Assembly (NCBI RefSeq): GCF_028641065.1 | Contig: NC_073398.1 | Coordinates: 7,998,001-8,062,000 of the forward strand | Reading direction: 5' to 3' | Length of the DNA: 64,000 nt | From: Leucoraja erinacea | Taxonomy: Eukaryota | Shown here: positions 1 through 61,400 of the stretch, in pieces | How positions within the stretch are numbered: the first letter of the stretch is position 1 | Layout: each line of letters begins with the position of its first letter | Program-made: the position numbers and the translations under genes | Notes under the pieces: model-generated | Told to the model about the DNA's origin: nothing | The model's input: only the letters and a program-made list of their open reading frames with translations | Database searches by the model: none

Positions 1-609
1 TACCTGTACTTCTAGACCCCTCTGCTCTACAACACTCCCAGGACCCTACCATTCACTGTAAAGATCCTGCCCTGGTTTCACTTCCCAAAATGCATCACCT
101 TGGTTCCAATCTGCATTGAACTCCATTAGCTATTCCACAGCCCACTTGCCCAGCAGATCAAGTGGCTGGTGTAATTTTTGACAACCAGTTTCCCTATCTA
201 TGATACCACCCACTTCAGTATCATAGTATCAATTATTTAACCTGTCAGTGACATTTTTGTATTTATGTACAGTATTATCTGACATGATTGAATACTATGT
301 AAAACAAAGCTTTTCACTGTACACTGATACACATAATAGACCTAAACTTAAAACCTAACTGTTAGATAAACTGAGATAAAGTGTATCATTCTCAACACCT
401 TTTTACTGATGCATACTAGTTTCTTTATAATAGACTGCTGTGCCAGAGTAGTTGATCATTGATTTTTTTTTTAAATAAAGAGTTGAAACATTAAGATATT
501 GATACCGTAAAGCAGAAGAGTAAGGTAGTGGATATGGTTGGACCACTGTGGCATAAAGTCTGTGTTCTTTTTACTCAAGGTAGAGGGAAATAGATAGGGT
601 GAATGCACA

Positions 610-1050
610 GTTTAAGAAGGAACTGCAGATGCTGGAAAATCGAAGTGTTGGAGAAACTCAACAGGTGAGGCAGCATCTATGGAGCAAAGGAAATAGGTAA
701 CGTTTCGGGTCGAGATCTTTCTGCAGACTATCTGAAATTAGAGAAGTCAATGTTCATACCGCTGGGGTGAAAACTGCCCAAGCGAAATATGAGGTGCTGC
801 TCCTCCAGTTTACGGTGGTCCTCACTCTGGCCATGGAGGCGGCCCAGGACAGAAAGGTCGGATTCGGAATGGGAGGGGGAGTTGAAGTGCTGAGCCACTG
901 GGAGGTCAGGTAGGTTAATGCGAACCGAGCGGAGGTGTTGGGCGAAGCAATCGCCAAGCCTACGCTTGATCTCATCGATGTAGAGCAGGTGACATCTAGA
1001 TAGGTTAATGCGAAACGAGTGGAGGTGTTGGGGGTTAATTCGAACCGAGT
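610..1050 (-). mobile_element. Penelope-like (Neptune-type) 3' fragment with pLTR, inserted in a CR1 remnant
   Basis: pLTR end (gtttaagaaggaactgcagatgctgg) and degenerate GIY-YIG coding sequence homologous to 55850-56400. CR1 3' sequence is present on both sides (575-609, 1050-1325). Confidence 0.75.
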
Positions 1051-2274
1051 ATGCAGAGTATTTATCCCCACCAGAGTAGGGGAATCAAGAAGTGGGCATA
1101 GGTTTAAAGTGAGAGGGAAAAGATCTAATAAGTACCTGATGGTCAACCTATAGTGGGTGTAGGGAACCAACTACCAGAGGAGGCAGTTGCAGCATTTAAC
1201 ACATTTGCAGAAGTGCATGGACAGCAAATATTCAGAGGGATATGGGCCAAACGTGGGCGAATGGGGCTAGCTTAGATGGGACATCATAGTTGGCATAGAT
1301 GATTAGGCTGCTCCATGGTGCATGACTAACAAGTCAATATAACAATTTACATTCTGGATTTTGTTCATCTGGTTGTAGTGTCCACAATTCTTACCGCATG
1401 AACGGAGATAAAAAAAACTTGAACATTTCCCCAAAAGGTTTTTATCTTTAAAATATGGGACCTTGAAATCCATAATGAATCCTACTTGAAGTCTCATCAT
1501 TCTGTAACTTATGAAGCATGAAGCAGAAGCTCCCAGTTTACTTCTTCAGATGGTGCTTCTGTGGCAGTACGGAGCTGAACCACCACCCCTAGCTCTGGTC
1601 TACATAGCTGCCTCAAGAGACGTACTACTGGTTAGTAATTCGATCATTGTGCTTATTCTGCCACAATGAGATCATGATCAATCTTAACTCCATCTATCTG
1701 CTTTGCTCCATGCAGTAATAAACACTTGCCCGGCAAAAACTCCAATCAGGTCAGATTTAATGCAAATGAGAAAACATCTCTTGCTTTTTGAGAACATTTG
1801 TTCTGGCTCAGACTACATCCTTGATAATGTCTTCTCTTCCTCCAGTAGGCAAACCGCCAAAAATCACCAATTCAAGGAATAAAAGCTTTTTGTCTTATAA
1901 TGTTTCTCCTTATGACCCATCCACTTATAACTGATTCTGGTGAAGGAAAACAATAATGTGCAAAGGTACTCGCATGGCCAAGCAGTTTTTGTGGAGCTAA
2001 TATTTCAGGTTGACGAGCTTTCACTGATTCTGAACATCATCAATCTGAAAATGTTAACCGTTTCTCTTCCGAGATGCTGCCTGCCTTGCCGAGGATACCC
2101 ATCAGCCTTTAGTTCTCATTTTAGAGTCGACAGTACTTTGAACATATTGCACACTATCCACATATTCCTTTCAATGTATTATCTAACCTCTGGCATAGGC
2201 GTAGCAAAATATATTTTCCTTAATATTTTACACATCTGATAAAGCTTAAATTTGATCAACTTTGTAGCTGACTT

Positions 2275-2362
2275 AGACACAAAAAGCTGGAGTAACTCAG
2301 CGAGACAGGCAGCATCTCTGGATAGAAGGAATGGGTGACGTTTCGGGTCGAGATCCATCTTC
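2275..2362 (-). mobile_element. Solo Penelope pLTR mini-element with degenerate hammerhead motif
   Basis: Family sequence flanked by an 11-bp direct repeat gtag(c/t)tgactt at 2264-2274 and 2363-2373. Confidence 0.75.
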
Positions 2363-3088
2363 GTAGTTGACTTTTTGCACCTAACCATTACATTTTAGAT
2401 TTCTATATAAGTTGATGGTCATAGCTTTGGACCTCCAAAAAGGAGCGAGCACAGGAAAGGAAAGTTGGCAATGACGAAAGCTGAGAAGGAGCTGAATTCG
2501 GAAAAAGAATACCACCACTGACTTCATGGTGCATTGAGTAGGTATTGTTTCTCTTTGGTAAGTCAGAATTTTTGTAGGAGGGAAAAAGGTTTACTACAGA
2601 ACAAGTAGAAGATAGATGGCTTGATAAAAGATTTTTTAACATATTCTGAAAGTATTAACGTTGTTTTGCTGATTTTGTTACGAATAGTAAAGAATGCAGC
2701 TAATGACTTCAAATCTGGACATCTGCATTGACAGACTCCTTTTGAGCCTCTACAGTTTTTAAAGTTGGTCCCTGCATCAGCTTATAATTTGAACATTCGC
2801 TTCCTTGAATTTCTATCCCTTATTACTGTAAGTGTACTGTGGTACACTATACTAATAAACACAAAATAACACGAGTTTGTCTATTTTGCTGCCACGAGTT
2901 TATATTATATGAAACCACAAGTGCAAGTCAAAATTTCAATGCTGATGAGGCTTTATGTCTAAACATTTTGAAAATCATTGTTAATATTTTTGAAACTTGA
3001 AAAATCACCTTCCTATACAATTTATCCATAGTTTGGTGGAGAGAGGTCAAATGGAAAATACAATCAAAAGACACACATTACAATATAC

Positions 3089-3235
3089 TGAAGGTACACA
3101 AAAAAAGCTGGAGAAACTCAGCGGGTGCAGCAGCATCTATGGAGCTATGCTCCATAGATGCTGCTGCGCCCGCTGAGTTTCTCCAGCTTTTTTGTGTACC
3201 TTCAATTTTCCAGCATCTGCAGTTCCTTCTTAAAC
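3089..3235 (+). mobile_element. Penelope pLTR mini-element with 5' inversion forming a near-perfect hairpin
   Basis: Arms 3089-3145 and 3149-3204 with a 3-nt loop; 16-bp direct repeat acaatatactgaaggt at 3080-3095 and 3236-3251. Confidence 0.85.
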
Positions 3236-4664
3236 ACAATATACTGAAGGTTGTATTAAGTTTCTTTTTGAGACACAGAATTAATGTAAAATATTACTTT
3301 AAAATTTTAAGGATGAAGGATAAAACCTCTCTGTAAAAATATGACCTGCCTTTCAGGTACACTTGCAACAATTCTAGTAGAATGCAGATTGAGCTTTATT
3401 TTGGCCCTACCTGTGCTGCTTCTTCTAGACTTATGTGAAGTTTAGTTGTCATGTGTCAACCATGGAGCCATGTTCATAATGTTGTAGGAAGCCAGTCGGT
3501 CTGTCAGTACAAGTAAAAACAGCTCAAAGCCGAATTATTCAGAAGTACAATAATACACTGCTGCAGCACAAAATTGTACTATTTGGTTTGCAGTGTTAAG
3601 ACCACATACTATATGTGACCTATTGAAAAGTCAGGCTCTTAACAGGATGGCAATGTACATCACTTCATAAGTCTCAAGAATACAGTTATGTAAAGATATT
3701 ATGATTTCTATCATTTAAAAAAAAATCAGATTCAGACAATTATTGACATTAAGTTTTAAGAAAATTTGAAAGCATTTTCCATTAAGCACAAATGCAGGAT
3801 TTTAAAGTGCAATATTTCCATTCCTTCTGAACTTCGGGATTAACCACAGAAACTATGATTAAAATACAATGAGTCTTTCTGACAATCACACAGGGCAACA
3901 GCAATGTAAAGTTAATGTCGACACTGCTTAAGTGACATGCTCGGTTTGAAGAACTTGCTTCATACATAATAATAATTTAATGCTTGGTATGTTGAGGTGC
4001 CCAGGGTGTTTGTCTTTAAATGTGCTTGATCAGTGATTTAAAATCAATAGGAAGATTGAGTCATTGATGGAATTTGATGGATCTTTGCATTATATTAAAT
4101 TAATACCAGTCTTTGGAGAGAAAACCGCATTTAACAGAATAGAACAAAATAGGCGAGTACCCATTTTTGCATTTTAGCAATACAAGATGTTACAAGAAAT
4201 AGGAGATTATGGGAAGGATGAAGAGAAAGCATACTTCCACTGTTTTAAGACTTAACAAAATTAAAATTGTGATAATTTGATTACAATTAGCTCAATTGGT
4301 TTGAATAGAATAGAATTGAACAGAAAATTAATGATTGTCAGCATTGGAAAATAGGGACTGTGCATAGGACACACAAACAAGTAAAGCACAGGAACAGGTC
4401 CTTTGGCCTACAATATCTGTGCTGAACATGATGCCAAGATAATCTGATCTCCTCTGCCTGATCCTCTATAATCCTACATTTCTATGTACCCATCAAAAGT
4501 CCTCTTAAATACCACTATTGTATCCGATTCCACCACCACCCTTGGCAACACGTGCCAGGCACCCACCACCCTCCTAAAATGATCCCGCAGATTTTCTTTA
4601 AATTTTTCCCCTCTCCCTTTAAAGCTACACCCTCGAGTCTTCAGATTTGTTAGCACCTGTTATC

Positions 4665-4860
4665 GAGGCTGGTTTACAAAAAAACTCAAAGTACTGGAGT
4701 AACTTAGCTGACCAGACAGCACCTTTGGTAAACGGGAACAGGTGATGCTTTGGTTTGGAGTCCTCCTTTAGTCTGAAGGGTCCTGACCCAAACCATTACC
4801 TATTCATGTTCACCAGAGATGCTTCCTGACCCACAAAGCTATCCCAGCACTTTGCGTCTT
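4665..4860. mobile_element. Diverged head-to-head pLTR pair
   Basis: ctggagtaacttagc... arm and ...ccagcactttg arm in inverted orientation around a decayed ctgaagggtcctgaccc core. Confidence 0.65.
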
Positions 4861-5896
4861 TAATTATTTTAAATTAACTTTTATCTTTTCAAGATGTCTG
4901 TGGCTATTTTAAATATTTAAAAGCAGTTGCAAAGTCCTTGGCAGCAATAAATTGCCAACCAGCTATCAGGATGTTCCAGGGCAAAGTCAGAATAGCTACT
5001 GGTCCACACCGGATGATTACTCAGGATTTGCTAAACAGAGCACATTACAGCATAGACTCTTCGACCCCACAATGTCGTCGCTGAACATGATGCCAAGTTC
5101 AACTCATCTCCTTTGCCCACATGCAATCCACATCTGTCTATTCTCTCTATATACTTGCATCCATACAAAAGCCACTGGCGTGTCTGTCTCCACCACATTC
5201 CCTCTGCAGCATATACCAGGAACCCACAACTCTAAAATAAAAAATTGCCTCTCATCTCCTTTAAACTTTTCCCTTTCAACTTCACATAAGGGTTTTGGCA
5301 TGAAGCAAAGAATTCGATCCACACAGCCGCATATGGTTATTGCGGCTGTCAAAACAGCATTGAGGTGGTGTACCTTGAGCCCAACTACTTTTTATTTCCT
5401 TCTATAGATTAGGGAGTAGCAGCAACAGTAATGGGTCCAAAAATTAAATCCACAAAAGTAAGGGGTATACCTTGGGCTGATTCAGTATCCATTTTCAAAA
5501 AGTGTACAAAATGCATGCCGAATAGGGAACTGTAATCTCTGTCACTGGCATCACTTGTAACTGGCCAATTTTGGATGGATACAGAAGCCAGAATGGATGT
5601 ACAACGGATGGTACCCACACTCACCAACCAACCAGTTGTAAATGAAACCGCTCACATTACAAAGATGATGCTGCAGCCATTTGTCTGCAGATAAAGCACC
5701 ATACTCATATTGAAACCACCATTCATGTTTAGTGTATGCTCAATGGGAGTAATTCAGGTTGGCTGAATCCAAGTTCATTGAGTTCTCTAGATCAGAATTT
5801 CATTAACAGCTGTTATTTTATTTAGCCACTGATGTGAACACCACTTGCAAGCTGACATTTATTAGCCATCATTAATTGCTCTCCGGATTGAATAAA

Positions 5897-6102
5897 AACA
5901 AAGTTCTGGAGGAACTTAGCAGGTCAGGCAGCATCTTTGGAGAAAACGGACTGGCGATGTTTCGGGTCGAGAGCTTTTCTCTGAAGGGTCCTGACCTGAA
6001 ATGTCACCAATCCATTACCTTCACGGGAGTTGCCTGACCCGCTGAATTCCACCTGCACTGTGTTTTGTTTGAGATTCCAGCATCTGCAGTTCCACACGTC
6101 TA
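5897..6102. mobile_element. Head-to-head pLTR pair
   Basis: Minus copy (...gatgtttcgggtcgag) joined to a plus copy (ctgaagggtcctgacctgaaatgtc...cagcatctgcagttcc). Confidence 0.7.
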
Positions 6103-7516
6103 CAAATTGAGTAGCTTGGTGGGCAGTTAAGTCACGGCAGTAGATTTAGAGTTACATGTAGGTTGCACATAGGATGGCAGAATTACTTCATTGGAGGGCA
6201 ATTTAACAGTTTAATGTTCATCATTCCTGACATTATTTTATCATTCCAGGCATAATTACTTTAAATTCAAGTCAACTGTGCCAAGCATTTAGTTTTTCAG
6301 ATATTAATCCAGTAATGTAAGAATTGCTGTCATAATGCTAAAAGTGTGGAGCCATTAGAGTGAAACAAAGTGGCTGAAAATCAATACATGGAAATAGGCA
6401 CTTCCACAATCAGTGGACCAAAACGACAACGCTGGTTTATTATTAGCAACATGGGGTGGGTTGGATGCCAGATGAAAGCTCCCTTAATGACGAGAAACAG
6501 TTGCATGCTGATCTAAGGCACGTAAATATCTGCAACCAGGAACATCAAATGGATGATCCATCTTGGCCACCCCCCCTCAAAGGCCATGACCCAAGCAAGA
6601 ATTAGTCAGACCACTAGCTAATCTATCTCAGTACAACAACAGAATTACTCTCAAGAACATAATGACCCACTCCACCATTCAATATCATTGCAGATGATAT
6701 TTTATCTCAGCTTCACTTTCCTGCATTCATTGCATAAACATTGAGCCATTAAAGTCTATCATGCTCCTTCTTGAAATTGTTTAGTTTCTCAGCCCCGTGA
6801 CCACTCCCACATGAAGAATTCGAAAGATTCACTATAGATGTTTTCTCATCCCTGTCCCGAGTGGCTGACTCTTTATTTTTTTTGGATTAACTCCTGGTAC
6901 CAAACACACGAGTCAGAACATCTAGCCCGCCAAGCCCTTGGAGAGTTCTGTTCCCTTCAAATACTTCTAGTATTTCTAGTTTCCTCCACTGTGTCCATAT
7001 GCAATCTCAAAACCTTGCAAACAATCTAAACAGTTAAAATATAAAGGTGCATCAAAAAATGTTCCTCAGAAGTGGCATATCCTACAATATCAGGAATAAA
7101 GTCCTCAATTTTAGAAAGAGGAAATTTATAAGTCAGCCTATCAATTTGATAAGTCAGTTTGATTTTTGTCAATTCCACTATAGGTTTTCCACATCTCCTT
7201 GCACTTTATGGAAATGGAAAATAAATTTGCCAATGTACCCATGAAGTGAATAAATTAATTCTCAAAGGATAAAGTGTTCAAATTTGACCCAGGCATGTAG
7301 ATTACAGATGGTTTCAGATGTTTTAAAGCAAACTGCACATTAGGACAGGCAGGTGAATTTTAAAGTCCACAGTAATTTTAAAAGGAAAATAGGGATGTTT
7401 ATCTGAACGTATTCCCCTCTGGCAAGACAAGATTAGTGCCATAGCTCAATTTGTGCGTAGTTGACTATACGCAATACAATTGATTAAAAGACATTAGAAA
7501 TACACTTCAAACGTAC

Positions 7517-9346: not shown

Positions 9347-11081
9347 ATGCTGAAACCTGGGAAAGCAGCAGGAATCGATGATGTACTGACGGAAATGATA
9401 CAGCAACTTGGACCTAAAGCAAAGACCTGGTTCCTAGCAATGCTGAACTCATGCATGGCACAGAAAACAACCCCACCTGTATGGAGAAAGGCCAAGACTG
9501 TCGCAATTCCAAAACCTGGAAAGGACCCATCATCCCCAAAGAGCTACAGACCCATTTCCCTCCTCTGCATCACCTACAAGCTCTACGAGAGGTTACTACT
9601 CCAACGCCTTATGCCACTTATAGACTCCAAGCTTACTAAAGATCAAGCTGGCATCCGACCTGGCCGCTCCTGTGCCGGGCAGCTACTGAACGTCACCCAA
9701 CACATTGAGGTCAGTTTTGAGTGCAAACTCATCGCCGGAGCAGCTTTCATAGATCTCACCGCTGCCTACGACACTGTCCAGCACCGCACCATGATCAGGA
9801 AACTTTTTGACATGACTGTTGACCTCGACCTGTGCCAAGTCATCAAAAGCCTTCTCAACAACAGGCGCTTCTTCGTTCAACTAAACGACAAGAAGAGCAA
9901 ATGGAAAACACAAAAGAATGGCCTACCACAAGGCAGCGTACTGGCCCCCCTCCTCTTCAACATCTACACCAACGACCAACCACTTCCCCCACAATGCCGC
10001 CGCTTCATCTATGCTGATGATCTCTGCATCACCACCCAACAGGAGAACTTCCAGAAGATCGAGTCTGTCCTGGAAAGTGCCCTCCAAGAGATGACAACCT
10101 ACTACAATAACAGCCACCTGAAACCCAACCCATCAAAAACCCAACTATGCAGCTTCCATCTTAAAAATCGAGATGCAGGAAAACAACTGAGCGTCTCATG
10201 GGATGGCCGCAAACTCTCCAACCACCTCCACCCCGTGTACCTCGGAGTCACACTCGACAGGACACTCTCTTTCAAAACCCACCTTCAGAACACCAAAGCC
10301 AAGGTCAACACTCGCAACAACATCCTGCGCAAACTGGTAAACTCAAAGTGGGGCGCTGATCCACCAACCATCCGTGCAACTGCCCTAGCCCTGTGCTTCT
10401 CCACAGCTGAATACGCGTGCTCAAGCTGGAGCCGCTCCCACCACACCAAACTGGTTGACACAGCCCTCAACGACACCTGCCGCATTATCACGGGATGCAT
10501 AAAGACAACGCCAGGCCCGTGCCTCTACGCCCTAGCTGGTATTGCCCCCCCCCCCCCCCCCATATCAGACGATCCATCGTCGCCCAAGACGAGCGGAGAG
10601 CACAGGAGACCGATACCAGGCACCCCCTGCACGGACACACAGCACCTCCACCCCGACTGAAATCTAGAGCCAGTTTCTTGCAGACAGTCCCACCTCTCCA
10701 GACAACCAAAGAAACAGCAAGGACCAACATCTGGAAAGATGATTGGAACCAGCTCAACATACGAGCCCACGACTGGATGGAGAGAGGAATCATTCCAACT
10801 GAATGCCTCGCCAGCTGGCACGACCTCGCATGGCCAACCTGGAAGACCCTCAACAGATTACGAGTGGAGCAGGGGAGGTGCAAAGCACTTATGAAAGCAT
10901 GGAACTACCAGGCAGAAGACACATGCAGCTGTGGAGCAGTACAGACAATGTCCCACCTACTGGAGTGTGACGACGCCCCCCAGTGCAGCCCCCAGGACCT
11001 GGCTGAACCGACCCGACCAGCTGTGACCTGCGCCAGATACTGGCAGAACGACATCTGAGATTGCAACGGACTCGAAGAAGA
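9347..11081 (+). mobile_element. 5'-truncated non-LTR retrotransposon, Vingi/Ingi-like (RT plus C-terminal Cys/His motif)
   Basis: ORF 9347-10660 has YRPISLL, PQGSVLAP and YADD motifs. It continues after one frameshift in a 17-C run (10545-10561) into ORF 10495-11058, ending in CSCG...QTMSHLLEC. No RNase H is evident; short gaagaaga 3' tail. Clade assignment is from motif recognition only. Confidence 0.85.
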
Positions 11082-47697: not shown

Positions 47698-47902
47698 CCC
47701 TCCACGTTGCCCATCCACATGAATTGAACGGATGTGATCTGCCAAATCTGGACTGGAGCAGAAACTGTTCTGGCATTGGTCCCAACAGCAGTTGTAAGTG
47801 ATATTCTTTCCTGAAGTAGTGCTTCCATGCCCATTTATCAGCGCTGGAGTAGAGCGTCCGCTGGAGATAGTACTGTCCATATCCATTAAGGTGCTGCTGA
47901 TA
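47698..47902 (-). CDS. AEBP2: AEBP2 coding exon (human exon 2 equivalent), C2H2 zinc finger 1
   Basis: Translates [68 protein letters not shown], recognisable as vertebrate AEBP2. Acceptor tctcttcaaAG, donor GTctgt, 205 nt, ends in phase 0. Confidence 0.96.
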
Positions 47903-50245: not shown

Positions 50246-52806
50246 CATGAAAAATAGAAAACTACAGGCCAGACAGCATGTTTGGATAACATGGATAGGT
50301 CAAGATCCTTCTTCAGACTGTTTGTAGGGAGAAGAAAGCTGGAAAATGGGAGAGGCAAGCAAACTAAGGGAATGGGAGTGCCATTCCCATTCCCTTAATT
50401 TTGTTTTAGCAGAATCTGAAACACTGATCTTTCAAGCCCAGATCGTTCCCACGCTGCTCAACAATGCCTTGGGTAGCAGCGTCTCAAAAGTGAAAAATGC
50501 TCCTGGCAAAAAGGTTGGGAATATCTTGCCACATAATCTGATAGCTCTGTAATGAAAAGGAGCACAAACTGCTGATTTTAAACTTGCATCAATATTCACT
50601 TGAACATTGATTGCAACTTTATATCCGTTCTGAACTTCACATTGACTCCGTAAGTGCATTTTATTTTTCAAACTTACGCCTGATTTAATCGTACTATCAC
50701 GCAATTCGTCGCTGTTGCTTTTTCCTCCTCATCTTACAAACAGAACAAATTACACTTATTCAAACAAAAATCAATTCAGGAAGGCGTTTTGTGCAATGGT
50801 GTTGTTACCAATAACGAAACTATTGTGGTTTCAAATGCACCTTCAAATGCACCCGATTTTGTTCCTTCCATTTAAAAAAAAATGGAGCCATACAAAAACT
50901 GAGCTTAAAAAACTGAGATGATAGCACAAAAATTGATTCAATACCTCAATTCACTTTTAGTTTCGTAGTAGCTCTTTGGCATTTAAAATCCACTCTAAGT
51001 GAGCTCCAGTTTCTACATTCCCATCAGAAAGATACACAGATGGAAAGTTTGTCTCCAAGAAAGCACAATCTTTCTTGTAACAAATATCGGGTTCCTATAA
51101 TTTTAATTCAAACTTAATTAAAACCCAAGTGGGAGTAATAAATACTATGAGTAATACACATACTGATTAGAATCTTGAACATGAATTGGAGATCTCCACC
51201 AGGTGCCAGCTAATGCGCATGCTCTATGGAAATTACATTTCTTCATGCTTCCTTTCAGCAGATTACTGCTCTTGCAAACCAACTGACTGTTTAAAAAGCC
51301 ACTAAGTAAAATGTGTGTAATTGAGAGTGCCAAGTACACTTAAAAATTCCAATAATGGGAAATGCTGCCAATCAAGCGAGCACAGAAGATGAATAAATGC
51401 GAACCCACATTCCTTTGAGAATTGCAGAATTCACATCAAATTAAAAAATGCAATCTCCTCAATATCCATTTTTGTGGAGTTCTAATAGGTTAAAGAGAAG
51501 TAGAACAAAGGAAAATGCAGTCCAGTCAAATAGTAATCTGGATGCAAACAAGGCGAAGTCTAACCAAGTTGTAATTTGTTGCAGCGCACAATAAGATGCA
51601 GGAACATTGCGAGTTCACCTGCATCTCTGGGGTGAAAAGAATCGGCAATGTTTTGAGTTGAAACTTTCCAACAGGACTCAGAGGAGAGGGAAGATGGCCA
51701 GTATAAACATAGCCAGACCCGCCAAGTACCTCCAGCAGATTGTCTGTGACCCGATTCTAGAATTTGCAGTCTCTTGCATCTCCAATTTACTTTTTACGTA
51801 CTGCAAAATCAAATAGGCAGATACGGCACAAAGAAAAATAAGGAAATCTAATATAATTAAGGACAGTCGAGTTACAATGAGGTATGGGATGATGAAAAAA
51901 TGATTTGCTTCATCATTAAGGTAAATGAAACGGCAATTATGCCAACATGCTTATTATTATTATTATTATTATTATTAGATGTTATATGCAAAATTCAGCA
52001 TGCATTTACATTTTTAAAAGCAAAGCAGTGGAGAATATGAACACAAGGATCAGCAAGAATGTTACAAGAAATGAGAAGATATGTGAGAGGACACTGAACA
52101 TTTGGGCCTCTTACCTCCAGTAAAAAGGGTCATCTGATTACACACATTCATAATTTTAAAAAGGTTAAAGTGGACAGAAAGAAATTTGTGGTTTTGAAAG
52201 TGCAGCCAAGAGCTGTAGTCGAGTGACAAAACAATTCCAAATATTGAAGATGGTGGGATTATTTTATTTCTGTAAACGTATATACTTGTCAAGCTGATAT
52301 TCTAAACTATTCCCAAAATGAATGTTCATTTCAGAGGTCAGCTAGATTTTAAAAATTCTGTGGACAAAGTACACGTATGTGCTATTGGCCAAACAAGGAA
52401 GATTGGCAGATTGACAGACACTAAATGCTGGAGTAAGTTAGCAGGTCAGGCAGTATCTTCCATCACCTGCAACGGCATTAGTCACATCTTCCCATCTCCA
52501 TCCCTCTTCATCATCTGTAGAGACTACTCCCTTCGCAACTCCATGATTCACCATTCCTTCTAAACCGCCCTGTCTCCAGGTACTTTCCCCTACAACCACA
52601 GGTGATGTAACACCTGTCCATATAGCACCTCACTGCTATGGTCCCACAATAGTCATTGAACATTCACCTCCACGAACCCTCACCTACTGCACAAAGTGAT
52701 CCCAACGTGGCCTCCTATACATTGGCGAGACCAAGGATAGACTCGGTAACCATTTTGCTAAACTATGGCATTCAGTCCAAGACGAACAAGACCTCACAGT
52801 AGCTTA

Positions 52807-53101
52807 AGGGGCTGTCCCACTGTACGAGATAATTCAAGAGTTCCCCCGAGTTCCCCCTGATTTGAACTCGGATAATTATGGTAATAGCCGCTCGTAGGTA
52901 CTCGGGACTCTCGTGGACATCATGTTGAAAAATCTTCACGAGTCTTTCCCCGAGTACCTGCTGTTAGCGTTACGAACCGTTAAGAGACGTCCCTAGCTCC
53001 TACGTACCCGCTACGTACATTCTACGTGCTTACCACGAGTCTGATTTTTTTTTTAAACTCGGGAGAGCTCTTGAATTAGCTCTTACAGTGGGACCGCCCC
53101 T
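52807..53101. mobile_element. MITE with long TIRs (Harbinger-like termini), TA-flanked
   Basis: ~45-bp imperfect TIRs aggggctgtcccactgtacgagataattcaagagtt... / ...gctcttgaattagctcttacagtgggaccgcccct; the host Penelope sequence resumes after a duplicated TA. Confidence 0.8.
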
Positions 53102-53206
53102 TACCATTTTAACTCCCCTTCCCATTCCATCGATGACCGTTCGGTCCTGGGCCTCCTCCATTGCCAGAGCAAAGCCACATGCAAACCGGATGAACAGCAC
53201 CTCATA

Positions 53207-53953
53207 AGCGAGTTCGGTATTCCGACTGCGCATGCCCAGGTCATAGGTCACTAGCTATAAAACAGTCTTGGCAACGATGGTGCTGCATTGTGTGCAGGCT
53301 TGTGTTTCGGCTGTAGTCGGGGTTGGCTCTCCGTCGCAGTGTATGCTGTTGAGCTGTCCCCATCCCCCTCCCCGGTGTCCCGTCCCTGTCCGGGGCGGCC
53401 CTGGACTTGCAGCTGCTGGCTCCAGCTCAGCTCTGCCTATCCCGCCGGGTTGGCCGGCAGCCCTCCACCTCCACCCCCCTCATACACAGAGATCCTGCTG
53501 AAGATGGGCAGCCGCCGGCCCTGCTCGAAGACGGGCAACTCGGAGCCGCTGCTGCTGGAGTCGTCCTGGTTGGAGAGAGAGAGTCTGCAGACGGGCTCCT
53601 GCTGGCCAGGGCAGGCCGGGCGCCCGCTGGAGCTGCTGGCGGTGATAGTGGTGCTGGCGGCAGCAGCAACCTTCTCCCCCTTCCTTGCCCAGGGTCTGGG
53701 CCAGCTCTAACTCCAGGTCGGGGCTGAAGGTTGCCCGCAGCGCAGCAGTCGAGCGCCGGAGGAGGCCGAGCCCAGGCTGGTGCTGTGGCACAGGTGAGGC
53801 CGGGGCCCTCGCTCCTCCTCGGGGTTGTGGACGGAGTGGCAGCGGGTACCGTAGGGGCGGCCTGAGGCCATGGGCTAACTGGCACTTGCCGCTTCCGTGC
53901 ATTTTTGACAAATCCCATGATTCCTTGCATTTTTTCGGAATACCGAACTTGCT
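53207..53953. mobile_element. Non-autonomous TIR element carrying gene-derived cargo (Pack-type)
   Basis: 19-bp TIRs agcgagttcggtattccga / tcggaataccgaacttgct (1 mismatch); TA duplication at 53205-53206 and 53954-53955 within the host motif cacctcatattctgcttggg. Confidence 0.85.
53479..53890 (-). pseudogene. Captured, internally deleted ZFP36/tristetraprolin-family gene fragments
   Basis: Collinear minus-strand pieces in different frames: GKCQLAHGL (end of CCCH finger 1), PYGTRCHSVHNPEEER (end of finger 2), RPHLCHSTS, RSPSADSLS, NQDDSSSSGSELPVFEQGRRLPIFSRISV (C-terminal CNOT1-binding motif). Paralog not determined. Confidence 0.85.
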
Positions 53954-55584
53954 TATTCTGCTTGGGTATCTTTTAACCCAGTGGTATGAACATTGAATTC
54001 TCCAATTTTAGGTAACCTCTGACTACCTGAACTCACACCCATCTCTCCCCTCCAGATTGGCCCCCTGGCCCACACCGTATACTTCACTATCCACAACTCT
54101 TCAAAACCCGTATCACACCCATTTTTCTTATAACTGACTTTTGTTCTAACCATCCAACTGTGTCAACCTATTACCAGCCACACTTTGTCCTGCCTTTTCC
54201 AAACACCCCCCACACCCACCCAGTGAAGAAGGGTCTCAACCCAAAACATCACCTATCCATGTTCTCCAGAGATGCTGCTTGACCCCCTGAGTTACTCCAG
54301 CACTTTGCATCTTTTTTATTTGTTAACTAGCATCTGCATTTACTTGTTCCAACAAAATTGGCAGATTTCCTTTATTGAAGGCTTATGACAACACAGCAGA
54401 TTCATTCATTTTATAAATCATTTTTAATATTAACTTTCCATTCCAGTTTTGTACTTATCCTGGTACTTTGCCTAAGATTTTCCTAATGATCACAAAAAGA
54501 GTCAAACATTATCTCTGGATACCTGTCAAGTAGCTTAACCAGTGCTTGTTTTGCACACCAACATATTCCTTTGTGTACAGGTCAATTAAAAATCAAGCGA
54601 CATCAACTATTTTTCCCATCAATATTCCCAACATTGAGGTAACTTACACCATGCGTTTAGACATGGAGTTAAGTTATTAGAAGTCAGTAGAAAGGCCCCC
54701 GATCCAAACGTCACCTGTCCTCCTTCTCCATAAATACTGCCTGACTCACCAAGTTACTCCAGTATTTTGTATCTTTTTTTGTAAACCAACGTTTTCACAA
54801 TTCCTTTTCTCATTGTTATAATTAATTCACACACTATCCATTAACTAATCATGATTAACAAACATACATGTCACATTGTTGGGAAACAAAATGTTTAACA
54901 TTCAGAAAAGCATTAAGCTTAACCATTATGCTACCATTCCTCAAATGAAGTAGGATATTCCTCATGTAGTATAAAGTGGTAATTTACAATAGTTATCCTA
55001 TTGGTATGTTTTTGGGCATGGAAATAAACCAAAGCACCTGGAAGGAGCCCAACAGGTACAGATACAACATGCAAAATCCCCCCAGACAAGTATCCTGGCA
55101 GCATCAAAAACTATGTCTACATTGTATCTTTATCCAAGCCATTAAGTTAGACTGAAAATAGTTGAGGATCCATCACAGATCGTGGTGGTCCTAATCATAG
55201 CTCGCTATGTTTTTCAACATTTTTTCCCTTTGTTCACCAATCCTCGATACATGCCAAGATATTACTCCAAATATCATGAGCTACTTTGTGCCATGACCCT
55301 CAATATGGCACCTTATTGATTGGCTTTTGGAAATCTGATTACGCTACATCTACCGTTTTCCCCTTTATCTATTGTACTCACTACATTAATGAAAACACAA
55401 ATGCCACGATTTCCCCATTAGGTAACCATGGTGAATTTCCTAATGATACGCTGATAATGGATTCCAACATCTGCCCAACGATAAATGTTGAGATAACCAA
55501 CCCTCATTTCTCGAATTGGAGACTTGCATATGTAATTTTCTAGTCAACCAAGTTTTTTCCAGAACTCAAGCTAACAATCAACCT

Positions 55585-56475
55585 GTTTAAGAAGGAACTG
55601 CAGATGCTGGAAAATCGAAGTTAGACAAAAATGCTGGAGAAACTCAGCGGGTGAGGCAGCATCTATGGAGCGAAGGAAATAAGCAACGTTTCGGGGTCGA
55701 ACCCCTTCTTCCGATGTGAGGGGGGGGGGGGGGGGGGGGGATAAGAAGAAAGGAATAGGTGCAGCCAGTGGGGAGGAGATGGGAAGATAAGGCAAGTGGT
55801 GGGTGGGGTCACGTTGGAGGTGGCAAAAATGCCGGAGGATTATTTGTTGTTATCCTCTGTCATTTTCGCCACCTCCAACGTGACTCCACCACTTGCCACA
55901 TCTTCCCATCTCCCGTCTGCTTTCCGCAGAGACCGCTCCCTCCGTAACTCCCCGGTCAATTTGTCCCTTCCAACCCATACCACCCCCTCTCCTGGCACTT
56001 TCCCTTGCAACCGCAGGAAATGCTACACCTGTCGCTTTACCTCCCCCCCCTTGACTCCATTCAAGGACCCAAGCAGTATTTCCAGGTGCGGCAGAGGTTC
56101 ACCTGCACCTCCTCCAACCTCATCTATTGCAGCCGCTGCTTTAGATGTCAGCTGCTCTACATCAGTGAGACCAAGCGTATGCTTGGCAATCGCTTTGCCA
56201 AACACCTCCACTCGGTTCACAATAACCAACCTGATCTCCCAGAGGCTCTGCACTTCAACTAGCCCCTCCCATTCCGAATCCGACCTTTCTGTCCTGGGCT
56301 TCCTCCATGGCAAGAGGACCACCGTAAATTGGAGGAGCAGCACCTCATATTTCGCTTGGGCAGTTTGCACCCCAGCGGTATGAACATTGACTTCCCTAAA
56401 TTTAGGTGGTTATTACTTTCCCCTCCCCTTCTCAACTCTCCATCAGCCCACTGGCTCCACCTCTTCCTTTCTTCC
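55585..56475 (+). mobile_element. Penelope-like (Neptune-type) GIY-YIG fragment with inverted pLTR
   Basis: PCNRRKCYTC and FTCTSSNLIYCSRCFRCQLLYISETKRMLGNRFAKHL (Cys-rich GIY-YIG); minus-oriented pLTR at 55585-55790. Confidence 0.85.
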
Positions 56476-57320
56476 TTTATCCTGTTTGCTTGATGATGGT
56501 TTGAGATTACTTCAACCCACCCCGCCTCTTCCGGCTGAAAAATTATTTATTAGTACTAGGTTTTAAAAATATCTTCAAACCTGAAGATTAATAGAAAACC
56601 TTTTCCAAGTTTCACCCATTTTGTATTTAATCATTTTTCCCAGTCTCATTCTCTAAGGAATCCACATACGTTTTAGCTTTTCCTTTGTATGCCCAAACTC
56701 CTCTTTTTATTTCATGCAGATCTATCCACATTTACCATCAAATCTTTATCCCCATCTGCTGGTTTACACCAAGCTTGACAATGAGTTTTCTTTCAACTTG
56801 AAGATAGCCTTGACTTAGTCAGCTAGAGGCAGATCACCACATTAATAGAGTGGTCCATTTCACAATTGGGAAGTCTCAAGTATCTGTTTTCTCACATGTT
56901 AGTTTTTAAATCTAATTTCCACTACTGCCTGCCTACCTTTACAGCAATAAAGACATTTGCTGTTTATCTAATGCATTTCCATTTAAATCAAATATGAAAC
57001 TTGATGCAATGATTTTGCTTTGGGGAACTGTTACTATAAAATCATTAATTAATCTAATCTTATGGTTGACGACATGTAAATAACTGGATGAGGTTAATTC
57101 TATAACATTGTACCAAAAATAAATTGATTCAACTCGCCCTCAAGAGTAATTTTGCCACTTTGATTTGTTTAATATTAAACAATAAAATTGACCACTATTA
57201 TTTAATACATTTCTTACATGTACAGGTGCACAACCTTTTATCCGAAAGCCTTGGGACCAGACACTTTTCGTAATTCAGAATTTTTCGGTTTCGGAATGGA
57301 AGATTTTTAGCGTAGATTTT

Positions 57321-57394
57321 AACGGCTGGCTCAGTGGTAGAGTGCTCGGCTCGTATCCGTAAGGTCGCGAGTTTGCGCCTCGATCCCGGCAGTT
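57321..57394 (+). other. tRNA-like sequence (SINE head or pseudo-tRNA) inside the DNA element
   Basis: D-arm/box A tggctcagtggtagagt, anticodon arm cgg-ctcgtat-ccg, aggtc variable loop, disrupted T arm. Confidence 0.6.
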
Positions 57395-57609
57395 ACTCGA
57401 TCGCGAGTTTGAGTCTTCAATGTAGGTTTTTCTTGCAGAATAGGAGAGAATAGGGAGGGTTAGGCTGGGATCCTTCTCTGCGAGATGATCTTAGTGCGGG
57501 AGACAAGTGTAGGAGAGGTGTACTGAGTGTGTGGGCAGAACTTTGGAAGTGATTGCCCACCATTCTCAAAAGCCGCTGTGTCTCCCTGTCCCTCCAACTC
57601 CAGAGGAAT

Positions 57610-58425
57610 CCGCTCCCCGATGGGCCGCTACGGCGATAAGTGGCAGTTCGCCCACAGCCCGAGCTGCGCCCCCTCATCCGCAACCCGGGTTCCTCTGGAG
57701 TTGGAGCGGGGCTGGGCTAGAGTTGTTGCTGGCTGTGAGTCTCTGGGATCTCCGTGCTTGCAGTGGGCCTGGGGGTCGGTGTCCCGATGAGGGGGCGCAG
57801 CTCGGGCTGTGGGCGAACTGCCACTTGTCGCTGTAGCGGCGCATCGGGGAGCGGCTTCTGGTGGTCCTGACGTCTCTCAGCTCCTGTCCAGGGGGACGGC
57901 TGGAGACGTCAGGACCAACAGGAACCCGCTCCCCGATGCGCCGCTACGGCGCCAAGTAGCAGTTCCCCCCACAGCCCGAGCTGCGCCCCCTCATCCGCAA
58001 CCTGGGTTCCTCTGGAGTTGGAGCGGGGCACTTCGAGAGTTGTTGCTGGCTGTGAGTCTCTGGGATCTCCGTGCTTGCAGTGGGCCTGGGGGTCGGTGTC
58101 CCGATGAGGGGGCGCAGCTCGGGCTGTGGGCGAACTGCCACTTGTCGCTGTAGCGGCCCGTCGGGGAGCGGCTTCTGGTGGTCCTGATGTCTCTCAGCTC
58201 CTGTCCAGGGGGACGGCCGGAGACGTCAGGACCAACAGGAACCCGCTCCCCGATGCGCCGCTACAGCGACAAGTGGCAGTTCGCCCACACCCCGAGCTGC
58301 GCCCCCTCATCCGCAACCCGGGTTCCTCTGGAGTTGGAGCGGGGCTGGGCTAGAGTTGCTGCTGGCTGTGAGTCTATGGGATCTCCGTGCTTGCAGTCGG
58401 TGTCCCGTTGGTCCTGACGTCTCCG
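57610..58425. repeat. ~317-bp GC-rich tandem repeat (about 2.5 copies) with internal inverted repeats
   Basis: Units start at 57610, 57926 and 58243. Unit 1 has 69-bp arms (57610-57678 / 57786-57854) and a 14-bp stem (57863-57876 / 57903-57916). Confidence 0.9.
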
Positions 58426-61400
58426 GTCACCCCCTAGAATGGAGCTGAGACTGGGAACTGCACCGCCCTTACCCCCTCCCTCTGCAACTGCAAACAACCC
58501 CACAGTTCCCAGTCTCATTCTGTACAGGGGGGTTGCCACACGTACAGCCCGAGCCATCAGCTTTTCCCTACGGGGCCAGCGGAGAGCGTCTTTTCTGGAA
58601 TTGGAACGGGGCTGGGCTCTGCTGGCTGTGGGTCTCTGGAATCTCCGTGCTTGCATCCCCCTGGGGGTCGGTTTACACCAAGCTTGACCGGTGACTGGCA
58701 CTTTCAACGTGAAGATAGCCTTGACAAAGCCAGCTAGAGCCGGATGCAATGCGCGGGGAGCTGGAGAGGGGAGGGAAGAGGTCACACACATGGCCGGGAA
58801 GCAGAGGGGTGTAGGTGGGGTGAAACTGAAGGGAGCGACAATCTACTGCTGCCTGCACTCTGAGTTAAAAAGTTCCTACGCAAGACTCACGATACACTGA
58901 TTTGAGTTACCGTGGGAACTTTTTAAGCTACGGGCAAAGCAGATTGTCAATTATTAACCCTATGGTTATACCCTCACCTTCTAAATTATGAATGGGGGTT
59001 TAGTTATAACATTGTACCAAAACCGACCGGATTCCGCTGTCAACTCGCGGGCCGCAAGAGTGAATTTTTTCAATTTGATCAAGGACTGAAAAAATTAGAC
59101 ATTCGGATTGGACCGTTATTATTTAATACATTTCTTACATGTACCTACTTCTGCTCTCTAGTTCAGCTAGTTAAGTGGAGTCAGTCCTTGTGATTTAACC
59201 TTCCAGACTAACCCATCATACAAAAGTTCTTGCTAAGTCCAAAGAGATAATGTATGAATATGACTAGCTATTCTGTCCAGTCATTTATTTATTCACTCAC
59301 TCAATTGATTCTACATCCTCATCCATTCGCCAAATTCCTCTCAAACATTTTGTTGCGTGCCGACCAGTCAGCGGAAAAACAATGCATGATTACAATCGCT
59401 CCATTTACGGTGTATAGATATATGATAAGGGAGTAACGTTTAGTGCAAGGTAAAGCCAGCAAGTCTGATCAAGGATAGTCCGAGGGTCATCAAAGTGGTA
59501 GATGGTACTTCAGCACTGCTCTCTGGTTATGGTAGGATGATTCAGTTGCCTGAAGAGCCAGACAGCAGATCAAGTTGTGTGCGGCAAACTAACTGTACTG
59601 CTGACAATACAACACTCAATATCTCAAGAGCTCCAATTTTCTACTGCACAGCTTACTTTCAGGTGTATATCATTTGATACTTCAAACATTTGGTTTGAAT
59701 AATTGGAACAGAGAGCTCGGAGATGAGAATGGACTAATTATAGAGGTTTTCCCGAAATGCTAACCATCAATCAGCTTTAATTACCCTTCCTAAAAGTATG
59801 TTTTGCAGACTTCAGGTCTATTCTGTCAATGTTTTAATCACAAAATTACAGTAAACAATCTCTGCCTGCATATTGATATTTTACAATAGTTTGCTGCAGC
59901 TACAAGGTGTAATAAATGCAAATATTTGAAAGGTTCTATGAAATGAATCAATTTTCAACGGTAATGCATTGCGTTGATGTTTAAGAAATTTCAGATTTGG
60001 TATTTATAGTCTTAATTTTAAGTATGGTGCTGCCCCCTGAAAGATGGATTATCCTCTGAACAAAAAATATTTCTCAAATATTTTGCTATGGGCACTGGTA
60101 CGGCCAGTTACTCGTTGATCCAGATATGATTATATTCCATATTCAAAGGCTCTCGAATATTTCAAATGAATGTGCAAGGCCCTAACGTTATTATCTCCCA
60201 TATACAGCATGTGGTTTTTCTTCATTTATTCCGAGGTTTTAATTTGTTGGTTGTGAAGGTTTAATATTCACTAGTTATTGAGGAACAGTTCCCAACTAAA
60301 ACACACAATAGACAAACCAGGGATAAACAAAAATGGCACAGCTTATGAACCTAATAAAATTGAAGCAAAAGTAATCTTTACAATTTAAAAATGTACGGTT
60401 ATCACCCTTTTTACATCAAACTTCCCTTCATCTTGCAAACTGGTTCAGAAGCATTTGCCAAAGATATCAACATAATATTTTGTTTAAAAAAAAACTGTAT
60501 TAAGTATACCAGGAGGCTAAACCTTGCCCTCATTGGTCTGGCACCTCCTTTAATCCAGACTAAATTACTAGAGTGCACTCGAAATCTCTCCCCAGGTGTG
60601 TGTCCCCCCCAAATTGTGGTGCCTAGGCCAGGTGAGGCAGTCTCATCTGGACTTCCATGGCCGAACTTCTAATCAGTGGATCGAATTTGCCCCCCCTGCG
60701 ACTGGGGCTCTGGAACGCCAACCCAGTCGGAACTGGCAGATCCGCTCCTTTTGTCCACTTCCTAGACTATCTTTGTGGGCCAGTATCTCAGCCTCCCGGC
60801 AGCAAGGATGGACTGTACTATTCGACTCCTCCCTGAGACAGTGACCTCTGCTGGTCCAATAAAGCAGATAGTCCATCAAGACTCTTGAATCAAAGGTGCC
60901 GAAAATTGGTCGGTATTATGTAATCTTGCAGACACATGAACTAAACAAACAAATTTCCACATTTGCTGTACTGTTATTTTTCTGGTGACAGTACAAGTGG
61001 ATCACAATTGTGTATTACCCTAGTAGACAAAAAACCAAAAGTGAAAATGCTCCAGCATACTGGAACTCCAGCGCTGACATTCCTACTTCTACCCATTCCC
61101 GTCGGTAGATGATACAGAAGCATGAAAGCACCACCACTGCTTCTTTTCCTGATATCAGGCTTCTGAACGGTCCTTTCACGAGCAAGGAAGACCTACTACA
61201 TTGCAGATATTGGACTTTTTCCTCTGAAACTGTTACACTACAATTATGAGAACTATATACGGCATCAAAAAAACTCAGTTATTCAAACTTTCAGTACCTC
61301 TCATGTTTTTCCATTATATATAGTCACTAATAAAAGCATCGAGGCAGAACATTTGATTTGATTCTAAAAAAAAAAAATCAAATTTGATCACGGAATTAAA

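Follow-up and report, generated by a model that had tools for sequence, protein, structure and literature searches.

What brought a piece of a ZFP36 gene between the inverted ends of a small DNA transposon inside AEBP2, is the locus one of a kind, and does the fragment do anything? The window analysed here is a stretch of 64,000 nucleotides (C22:7998001-8062000) in a 2.19-Gb genome, in which a first-pass annotation, made from the letters alone, had described a 747-bp element with 19-bp terminal inverted repeats (TIRs) and a TA duplication, carrying ZFP36 fragments. We consider it highly probable that this element is a decayed copy of a multicopy, non-autonomous family (family A), that its cargo is a contiguous stretch of exon 2 from a third ZFP36 gene, likely taken up in one capture, and that this cargo is likely an inert passenger. 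The donor, the shared capture junctions, the cargo-free relatives, the TA duplication, the neutral decay of the copies and the presence of the junction in two other transposon families are directly supported by the results below.

The limits of the element, 53207-53953, are exact when checked in the letters of the window, its 19-bp TIRs match at 18 of 19 bases, and TA lies on both flanks (Table 1). The interior has a GC content of 66-72%, compared with 41% for the window. All five minus-strand peptides named in the first-pass annotation are present in gene order, spread over three frames. Of the two fingers, the cargo retains the end of the first and part of the second, followed by the C-terminal region with its CNOT1-binding-type tail, the stop region and ∼20 bp of 3′ UTR. 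A Pfam search with three frameshifted peptides from the window returned 0 families; the identification of the cargo rests on the donor gene. In a pairwise alignment, the window copy is identical to the family consensus at 695 of 740 aligned bases, and its long branch in the copy tree is an alignment artefact. In this copy, ∼390 bp of the right arm are missing together with the 5′ capture junction; ∼50 bp between the fingers and several pieces of 2-12 bp are also gone, and ∼426 of the 561 bp of cargo remain. The cargo had been described as condensed by internal deletions; the deletions are real, but the segment is contiguous in exon 2 and its condensed look comes mostly from frameshifts. Immediately to the left of the element lies a separate 299-bp element (52805-53103) with 48-nt inverted arms (90%), which is of very high copy number by the depth of read-run contigs.

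Table 1. Features of the window discussed in the text, in window coordinates.
Feature	Position	Strand	Evidence
AEBP2 exon 2, limits approximate	47700..47890	-	
Older repeat of high copy number into which the element inserted; outer limits approximate	53131..54016	.	Contig depth, joints and loose ends; empty sites
Left TA target-site duplication	53205..53206	.	Single TA at 17/18 empty paralogous sites
Left 19-bp terminal inverted repeat, family A	53207..53225	+	569 exact 21-mer matches genome-wide, control 0
Carrier arm common to cargo-free relatives, GC-rich, non-coding	53226..53462	+	
Captured ZFP36 exon-2 segment, frameshifted, with private deletions	53463..53888	-	
Right carrier arm remnant	53889..53934	+	Global alignment to family consensus
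Right 19-bp terminal inverted repeat	53935..53953	-	
Right TA target-site duplication	53954..53955	.	
Young Tc1/mariner-like non-autonomous element, family C; right end missing, mosaic with own flank	57223..59107	+	
Family-A junction with ZFP36 finger 1, short copy 1 of 5 in the family-C element	57624-57686	+	
Short copy 2 of 5	57788-57840	-	
Short copy 3 of 5	57940-58002	+	
Short copy 4 of 5	58105-58157	-	
Short copy 5 of 5	58257-58319	+	

Motifs of AEBP2 exons lie on the minus strand at ∼47.9, 39.3 and 31.9 kb of the window, and the acidic, alanine-rich N-terminus is encoded by a CpG-island first exon at C22:8073 kb, 11 kb past the window end. These positions place the element in AEBP2 intron 1 with the cargo in sense to AEBP2, as had been annotated. 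Elsewhere within AEBP2, reverse-transcriptase-like frames of 437 and 187 codons (window 9347-11058) were labelled by eye as a LINE-type insertion. The element interrupts an older high-copy repeat, an empty paralog of which lies within the window at 56340-56410. Among 18 distinct empty copies of this repeat in fetched DNA, 17 carry a single TA at the insertion site, while a duplication of “AT” with shifted ends fits 1/18 only. Across 156 family-A ends, the left flank reads A/T, A, T, A at 152, 148, 152 and 155 ends, respectively: a strict (A/T)ATA left flank and a strict palindromic target. A TA duplication would look the same as the blunt insertion of an element with one more base at either end.

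The search for a donor paralog that had been recommended points to a single gene. There are three intact tandem-finger genes in the genome, two of which contain Tis11B_N and match the cargo over the fingers only, at 78-79%. The third (L035), on C38, has two exons and is identical to the family consensus at 487 of 513 aligned bases, over a stretch that begins at the end of finger 1 and includes the stop codon; the element itself matches this gene by BLASTN with an E value of 4e-115, far beyond chance. ZFP36L1 and ZFP36L2 are rejected as donors on this contrast, and the proposed capture from the ZFP36 family holds. Among named orthologs of the donor protein, the nearest (79% identity) comes from a skate; orthologs are present in rays and sharks under mixed names, and the donor is probably ZFP36/TTP proper. 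A look for motifs of neighbouring genes in the 58 kb around the donor found nothing. Within the same 58 kb there is no family-A sequence, and the cargo itself is the sole match, so the parent gene is not flanked by the element.

Comparison of donor and transposon also bears on the age of the capture. The two differ at 21 of 127 silent sites, and the silent divergence among the copies themselves is about half of this; the capture may predate the burst of copies, or the small donor chromosome may evolve faster. At five of the six amino-acid differences from the donor, the consensus has the residue of other rays, and the transposon thus preserves an older state of the ZFP36 gene, a fossil of the skate sequence. 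At one site, the ray state is kept in the transposon and the donor instead has a residue in common with another skate, which hints at an old capture. Apparent deletions of 6 and 15 bp in nearly all copies are better read as later insertions in the donor, as the protein of another skate lacks them.

Is the locus one of a kind? A DNA search returned at least 40 loci at 75-100% identity, the 40 scored out of 2,655 candidates, with complete cargo copies mostly 1.15-1.33 kb long. In the genome-wide search for the ends, the exact terminal 21-mer of family A occurs 569 times, and reversed-pattern controls for the exact-match counts gave 0 matches. We sampled 60 of these ends in list order from C1 and C2, and found cargo in 13/60 and cargo-free relatives in 47/60, the latter including near-palindromic forms of 0.6-0.7 kb and an AT-rich subfamily of 1.6-1.7 kb. 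An exact 21-mer from the cargo has 85 matches in the genome, one of them in the donor and 84 elsewhere on many chromosomes. Since this 21-mer recovers 18/51 known copies and 6/13 end-sampled ones, ∼180-240 copies are expected, and the terminal count (569 × 13/60, at 12 exact ends per 38 copies) gives ∼390. We therefore estimate 200-400 family-A copies with cargo, and the amplification proposed in the first-pass annotation is borne out. In contigs from DNA runs of three labelled organisms, the summed depth of the cargo is ∼400-6,600 compared with 6-20 for unique flank pieces, which suggests that family A is common to related species, in a set where no listed contig bridges the junction and one label may be the species of the window.

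These counts also bear on the possibility that the cargo filled a gap just once, in a dead transposon at this locus, or spread by segmental duplication. One-off gap filling is the commonest origin of animal Pack-TIRs in the survey text covered (Tan et al., 2021, PMC8277862), and the private deletions of the window copy would be in keeping with it. The cargo is nevertheless dispersed over ≥40 loci at 75-82% identity and the 84 exact matches given above, and the copies have unrelated flanks, each with its own TA site. This explanation is already refuted, and its probability is close to nil. Cargo-free relatives, which beside a single cargo copy had been named as a sign of such an event, do exist and are the majority, but the cargo form has itself been amplified.

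What kind of transposon is the carrier? No long coding interior, as expected of an autonomous partner, was found in the 60 end-sampled loci or in the 1.7-kb subfamily, and none of 21 DUF3504 matches in the genome resembles family A. As no autonomous element was found, cut-and-paste mobility is argued from the ends and the duplication. By the same two features, the TA duplication suggests a Tc1/mariner affinity, while the AGCG terminus of family A differs from that typical of Tc1/mariner. A Crypton origin is rejected on account of the inverted ends, there being no link to the 21 DUF3504 matches. Helitrons have neither a pair of terminal inverted repeats nor a target duplication, and family A has both. 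The carrier also departs from the likeness to MULEs that had been drawn: Pack-MULEs have 9-10-bp duplications and long ends, unlike the 2-bp TA and 19-bp ends of family A.

Several side features of the family were seen in the sampled loci. In the cargo-free 1.6-1.7-kb subfamily (L107-L126), a 65-codon frame is open in many copies; its 65 residues matched nothing in the Atlas or in a protein search, both weak tests, and it is not taken as a transposase remnant. Four family-A elements on C1 (L049, L050, L059, L061) have different interiors, including SINE-like pieces and, in L049, a stretch of 500 bp, and further captures are possible from these interiors. In three others (L060, L078, L095), both ends are of the left type, which points to a fold-back rearrangement.

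The capture itself was examined in 51 distinct copies (30 from the DNA search, eight from another search and 13 end-sampled), after removal of L041 as a duplicate of L022; L104 was too short and was left out of the tree. The cargo corresponds to a single unbroken stretch of exon 2, which was 727 bp long at capture and later trimmed to 561 bp, in line with the shortening by deletion that had been proposed. None of the 51 main alignments extends upstream of donor position 1552, and 28/51 start at 1553. On the 3′ side, five of the 51 copies keep the longer capture and run to ∼2279, and most others end at 2113. Carrier and cargo probes adjoin at the 5′ junction in 35/51 copies, at the short 3′ junction in 37/51 and at both in 24/51; strict adjacency failed at one junction or more in 27/51, the causes being the long form, deletions and insertions acquired later. 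At the 5′ switch point, the majority sequence of seven cargo-free relatives shares a 4-bp microhomology with the donor, GCCG, which can arise by chance. The 3′ junction has ∼9 extra bases in the long form and is joined at a shared AG in the short form. By-eye comparison with cargo-free copies indicates that ∼190 bp of the carrier middle were replaced by cargo.

A further deletion of 11 bp in finger 2 has identical coordinates in 26/51 copies, with a gap at that site in 29/51, among them the long-form copy L100, and it co-occurs with a derived base in family-A copies. The copy tree is star-like and mostly unresolved, with six of 48 inner branches well supported; neither the long form nor the 11-bp-deletion copies form a single clade (three changes each), and the tree neither shows nor excludes a single origin of either subfamily. 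Taken together, these results lead us to infer that template switching brought in the cargo once and that master copies were trimmed afterwards.

The template could also have been ZFP36 mRNA, with an RNA-templated patch or a retrocopy within the element that the transposon then spread. The captured stretch lies wholly in exon 2 and thus leaves no intron by which to test the template, and LINE reverse-transcriptase frames that look intact are frequent among the loci sampled. Yet there is no poly(A) tail, the capture ends ∼185 bp into the 3′ UTR and ∼550 bp short of its AU-rich part, and the cargo replaces carrier DNA and is not bounded by short direct repeats. We regard an mRNA origin as unlikely and retain template switching on the gene as the preferred reading.

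The family-A junction is not confined to family A. It is also present in another family (family C), where an exact 28-mer across it has 1,769 matches in the genome (some elements hold two; control 0). We sampled 30 of the 97 loci in which the junction has its family-A form, and found family-A ends at six, family-C ends at 15 and neither at nine; of these nine, eight have the ends of a third family (family B), five of them carrying finger DNA fused to the C-terminal tail together with both family-A junctions. PIF/Harbinger elements make a 3-bp TNA-type target duplication, and Tc1/mariner elements a TA duplication, with short inverted ends starting CAG. Family B reaches ∼2.4 kb in its longest copies and has long inverted ends and 3-bp TNA-type flanks, identical in two of the three loci with both ends and with one mismatch in the third. 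Family C has 24-bp ends starting CAG, TA flanks and a length of ∼1.64 kb. From these ends and duplications, set against the superfamily definitions, we take B to be Harbinger-like and C to be Tc1/mariner-like.

Family C is represented by at least 40 copies at 99-100% over the stretch searched, and its left end has 4,109 exact matches, with the junction piece in 11 of 30 end-sampled members. As cargo it carries the family-A 5′ junction and 60-125 bp of finger DNA, present in both direct and inverted orientation; the inverted finger pairs have 82-nt arms at 90-93%, and identity of the family-C piece to the donor is only 67-82%. The window holds one family-C copy (Table 1), with an additional 317-bp tandem unit. 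Over its last 600 bp, family sequence is patched together with pieces of the copy's own left flank (56637-57223); a recent insertion that is heterozygous, and was assembled as a mosaic, may account for this. The start of this element (57315-57380) looks tRNA- or SINE-like by eye, and ARAGORN calls no gene there.

The direction of transfer can be read from derived changes. Older family-C members and the family-B pieces both carry the 11-bp deletion and the two linked derived bases of the late family-A subfamily, which sets the direction of the relay. Segments internal to family B are present in family C at 84-98%, and none is found in two cargo-free relatives of C. The simplest order is gene to A to B to C, and on this sequence evidence a three-step relay of the ZFP36 piece through three transposon families is likely, which would have taken it to well above a thousand further sites. 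A fixed junction combined with derived deletions thus serves as a tracer that orders the transfer of DNA among transposon families, which is usually hard to polarise.

The proposed history would begin with a break inside a family-A element, the repair of which would have switched template onto the ZFP36 gene through the 4-bp microhomology on the 5′ side and added ∼9 bases of filler on the 3′ side. Cargo of 727 bp would have taken the place of ∼190 bp of the carrier middle, and a transposase may then have mobilised the chimera in a star-like burst. During this burst, master copies would have been trimmed from 727 to 561 bp and then by the 11-bp deletion. A derived family-A copy would have given its junction region to the Harbinger-like element of family B, the middle of which would have passed into the Tc1/mariner-like element of family C, which presumably amplified recently.

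Does the cargo do anything? In the copies, 1,509 isolated substitutions were scored, with 1,021 replacements compared with 1,017.5 expected in matched sequence context (z = 0.23). Between donor and consensus there are six replacements compared with 16.4 expected (z = -4.6). The copies evolve neutrally and the donor is under purifying selection; the low raw pN/pS of the copies (0.68) disappears when sequence context is matched. Only one of the 51 copies is without a stop or frameshift, and its finger residues are altered. The capture starts inside finger 1, the first cysteine of which was missing from the outset, and finger 1 was never taken whole. By what is established on tandem CCCH domains, the cargo was therefore never able to encode an RNA-binding unit. 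The copies lack the marks of a functional ZFP36 duplicate, namely two intact CCCH fingers, an open frame and purifying selection. In a poly(A) run from another labelled organism, cargo depth was ≤1.3 at the 90% threshold, a measure too insensitive either way. The cargo is inert by every test run and the copies examined decay like junk; the RNA-level function or exonisation that had been suggested finds no support here.

Some copies might still act on ZFP36-family mRNA or on host genes, whether as a tail peptide with a dominant-negative effect, by exonisation of a piece or through small RNAs to which inverted copies give rise. The conserved C-terminal tail within the cargo, the inverted finger pairs of family C and one acceptor-like site in the window copy, in AEBP2 sense, would each offer a route. 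The neutral substitutions, the near absence of open copies, the incomplete finger 1 and the low identity of the family-C pieces to the donor argue against such action, and the window copy has no donor-like splice site or poly(A) signal; we hold activity of this kind to be quite improbable. Marginally less probable again is a broader scenario, in which skate elements of different superfamilies form a cargo-exchange network and family C, the youngest, with its inverted finger pairs in over a thousand recent copies, gives hairpin-derived small RNAs that act on ZFP36-family mRNAs; if true, gene capture would here have led to silencing cross-talk in a vertebrate. On the preferred reading of an inert passenger, the copies can still inflate counts of ZFP36 genes and confuse read mapping in skate genomes.

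The literature searched, which covered few subscription papers, holds no report of a ZFP36-carrying family, and within the Pack-TIR literature no title or opening of an abstract concerns cartilaginous fish. The family is a high-copy case of the known animal Pack-TIRs, with transfer between families. Its ends are those of one TIR element also found without cargo, the 561- or 727-bp interior (within 100-5000 bp) comes from a host locus, and the same chimera lies at several loci with independent insertion sites. As described in the parts of the animal survey consulted, multicopy Pack-TIRs are likewise pieces of host genes between non-autonomous TIR ends at distinct insertion sites, with four multicopy cases (1.4%), two of them described with 3-4 loci; Pack-hAT-N8_XT, which carries the CAPSL 5′ UTR, and Ssk-FB4 are examples (Tan et al., 2021, PMC8277862). 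As in Ssk-FB4, one of the two capture junctions of family A shows microhomology and the second filler; unlike Ssk-FB4, which is translated and under selection, the family-A cargo is neutral (Tan et al., 2021). The estimated 200-400 copies, on a scale ∼100-fold greater, and the relay into two more families also set it apart from these examples, a contrast that is partly one of ascertainment, as the survey filters described there (unique top hit, ≥90% identity) miss an old high-copy family (Tan et al., 2021). Multicopy cases were rare and small in that survey, in part because its filters exclude such families; in a vertebrate, cut-and-paste elements are able to multiply a captured piece of coding sequence into hundreds of copies.

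The resemblance to plant Pack-MULEs, as these are presented in the same survey, is that non-autonomous cut-and-paste elements capture and re-amplify gene fragments (Tan et al., 2021). Cryptons invite comparison because of the unusual ends and strict target of family A, and its inverted ends set it apart, Cryptons being described in the passages covered as without terminal inverted repeats (Kojima and Jurka, 2011, PMC3212892; PMC13465315). The closest match in scale is with bat Helitrons, for which the text covered reports captured pieces of 54 genes in 12,382 copies (Thomas et al., 2014, PMC4224331). Family A resembles them in the large-scale amplification of captured gene pieces in a vertebrate, and differs in that bat Helitrons are rolling-circle elements, while family A has terminal inverted repeats and a target duplication (Thomas et al., 2014).
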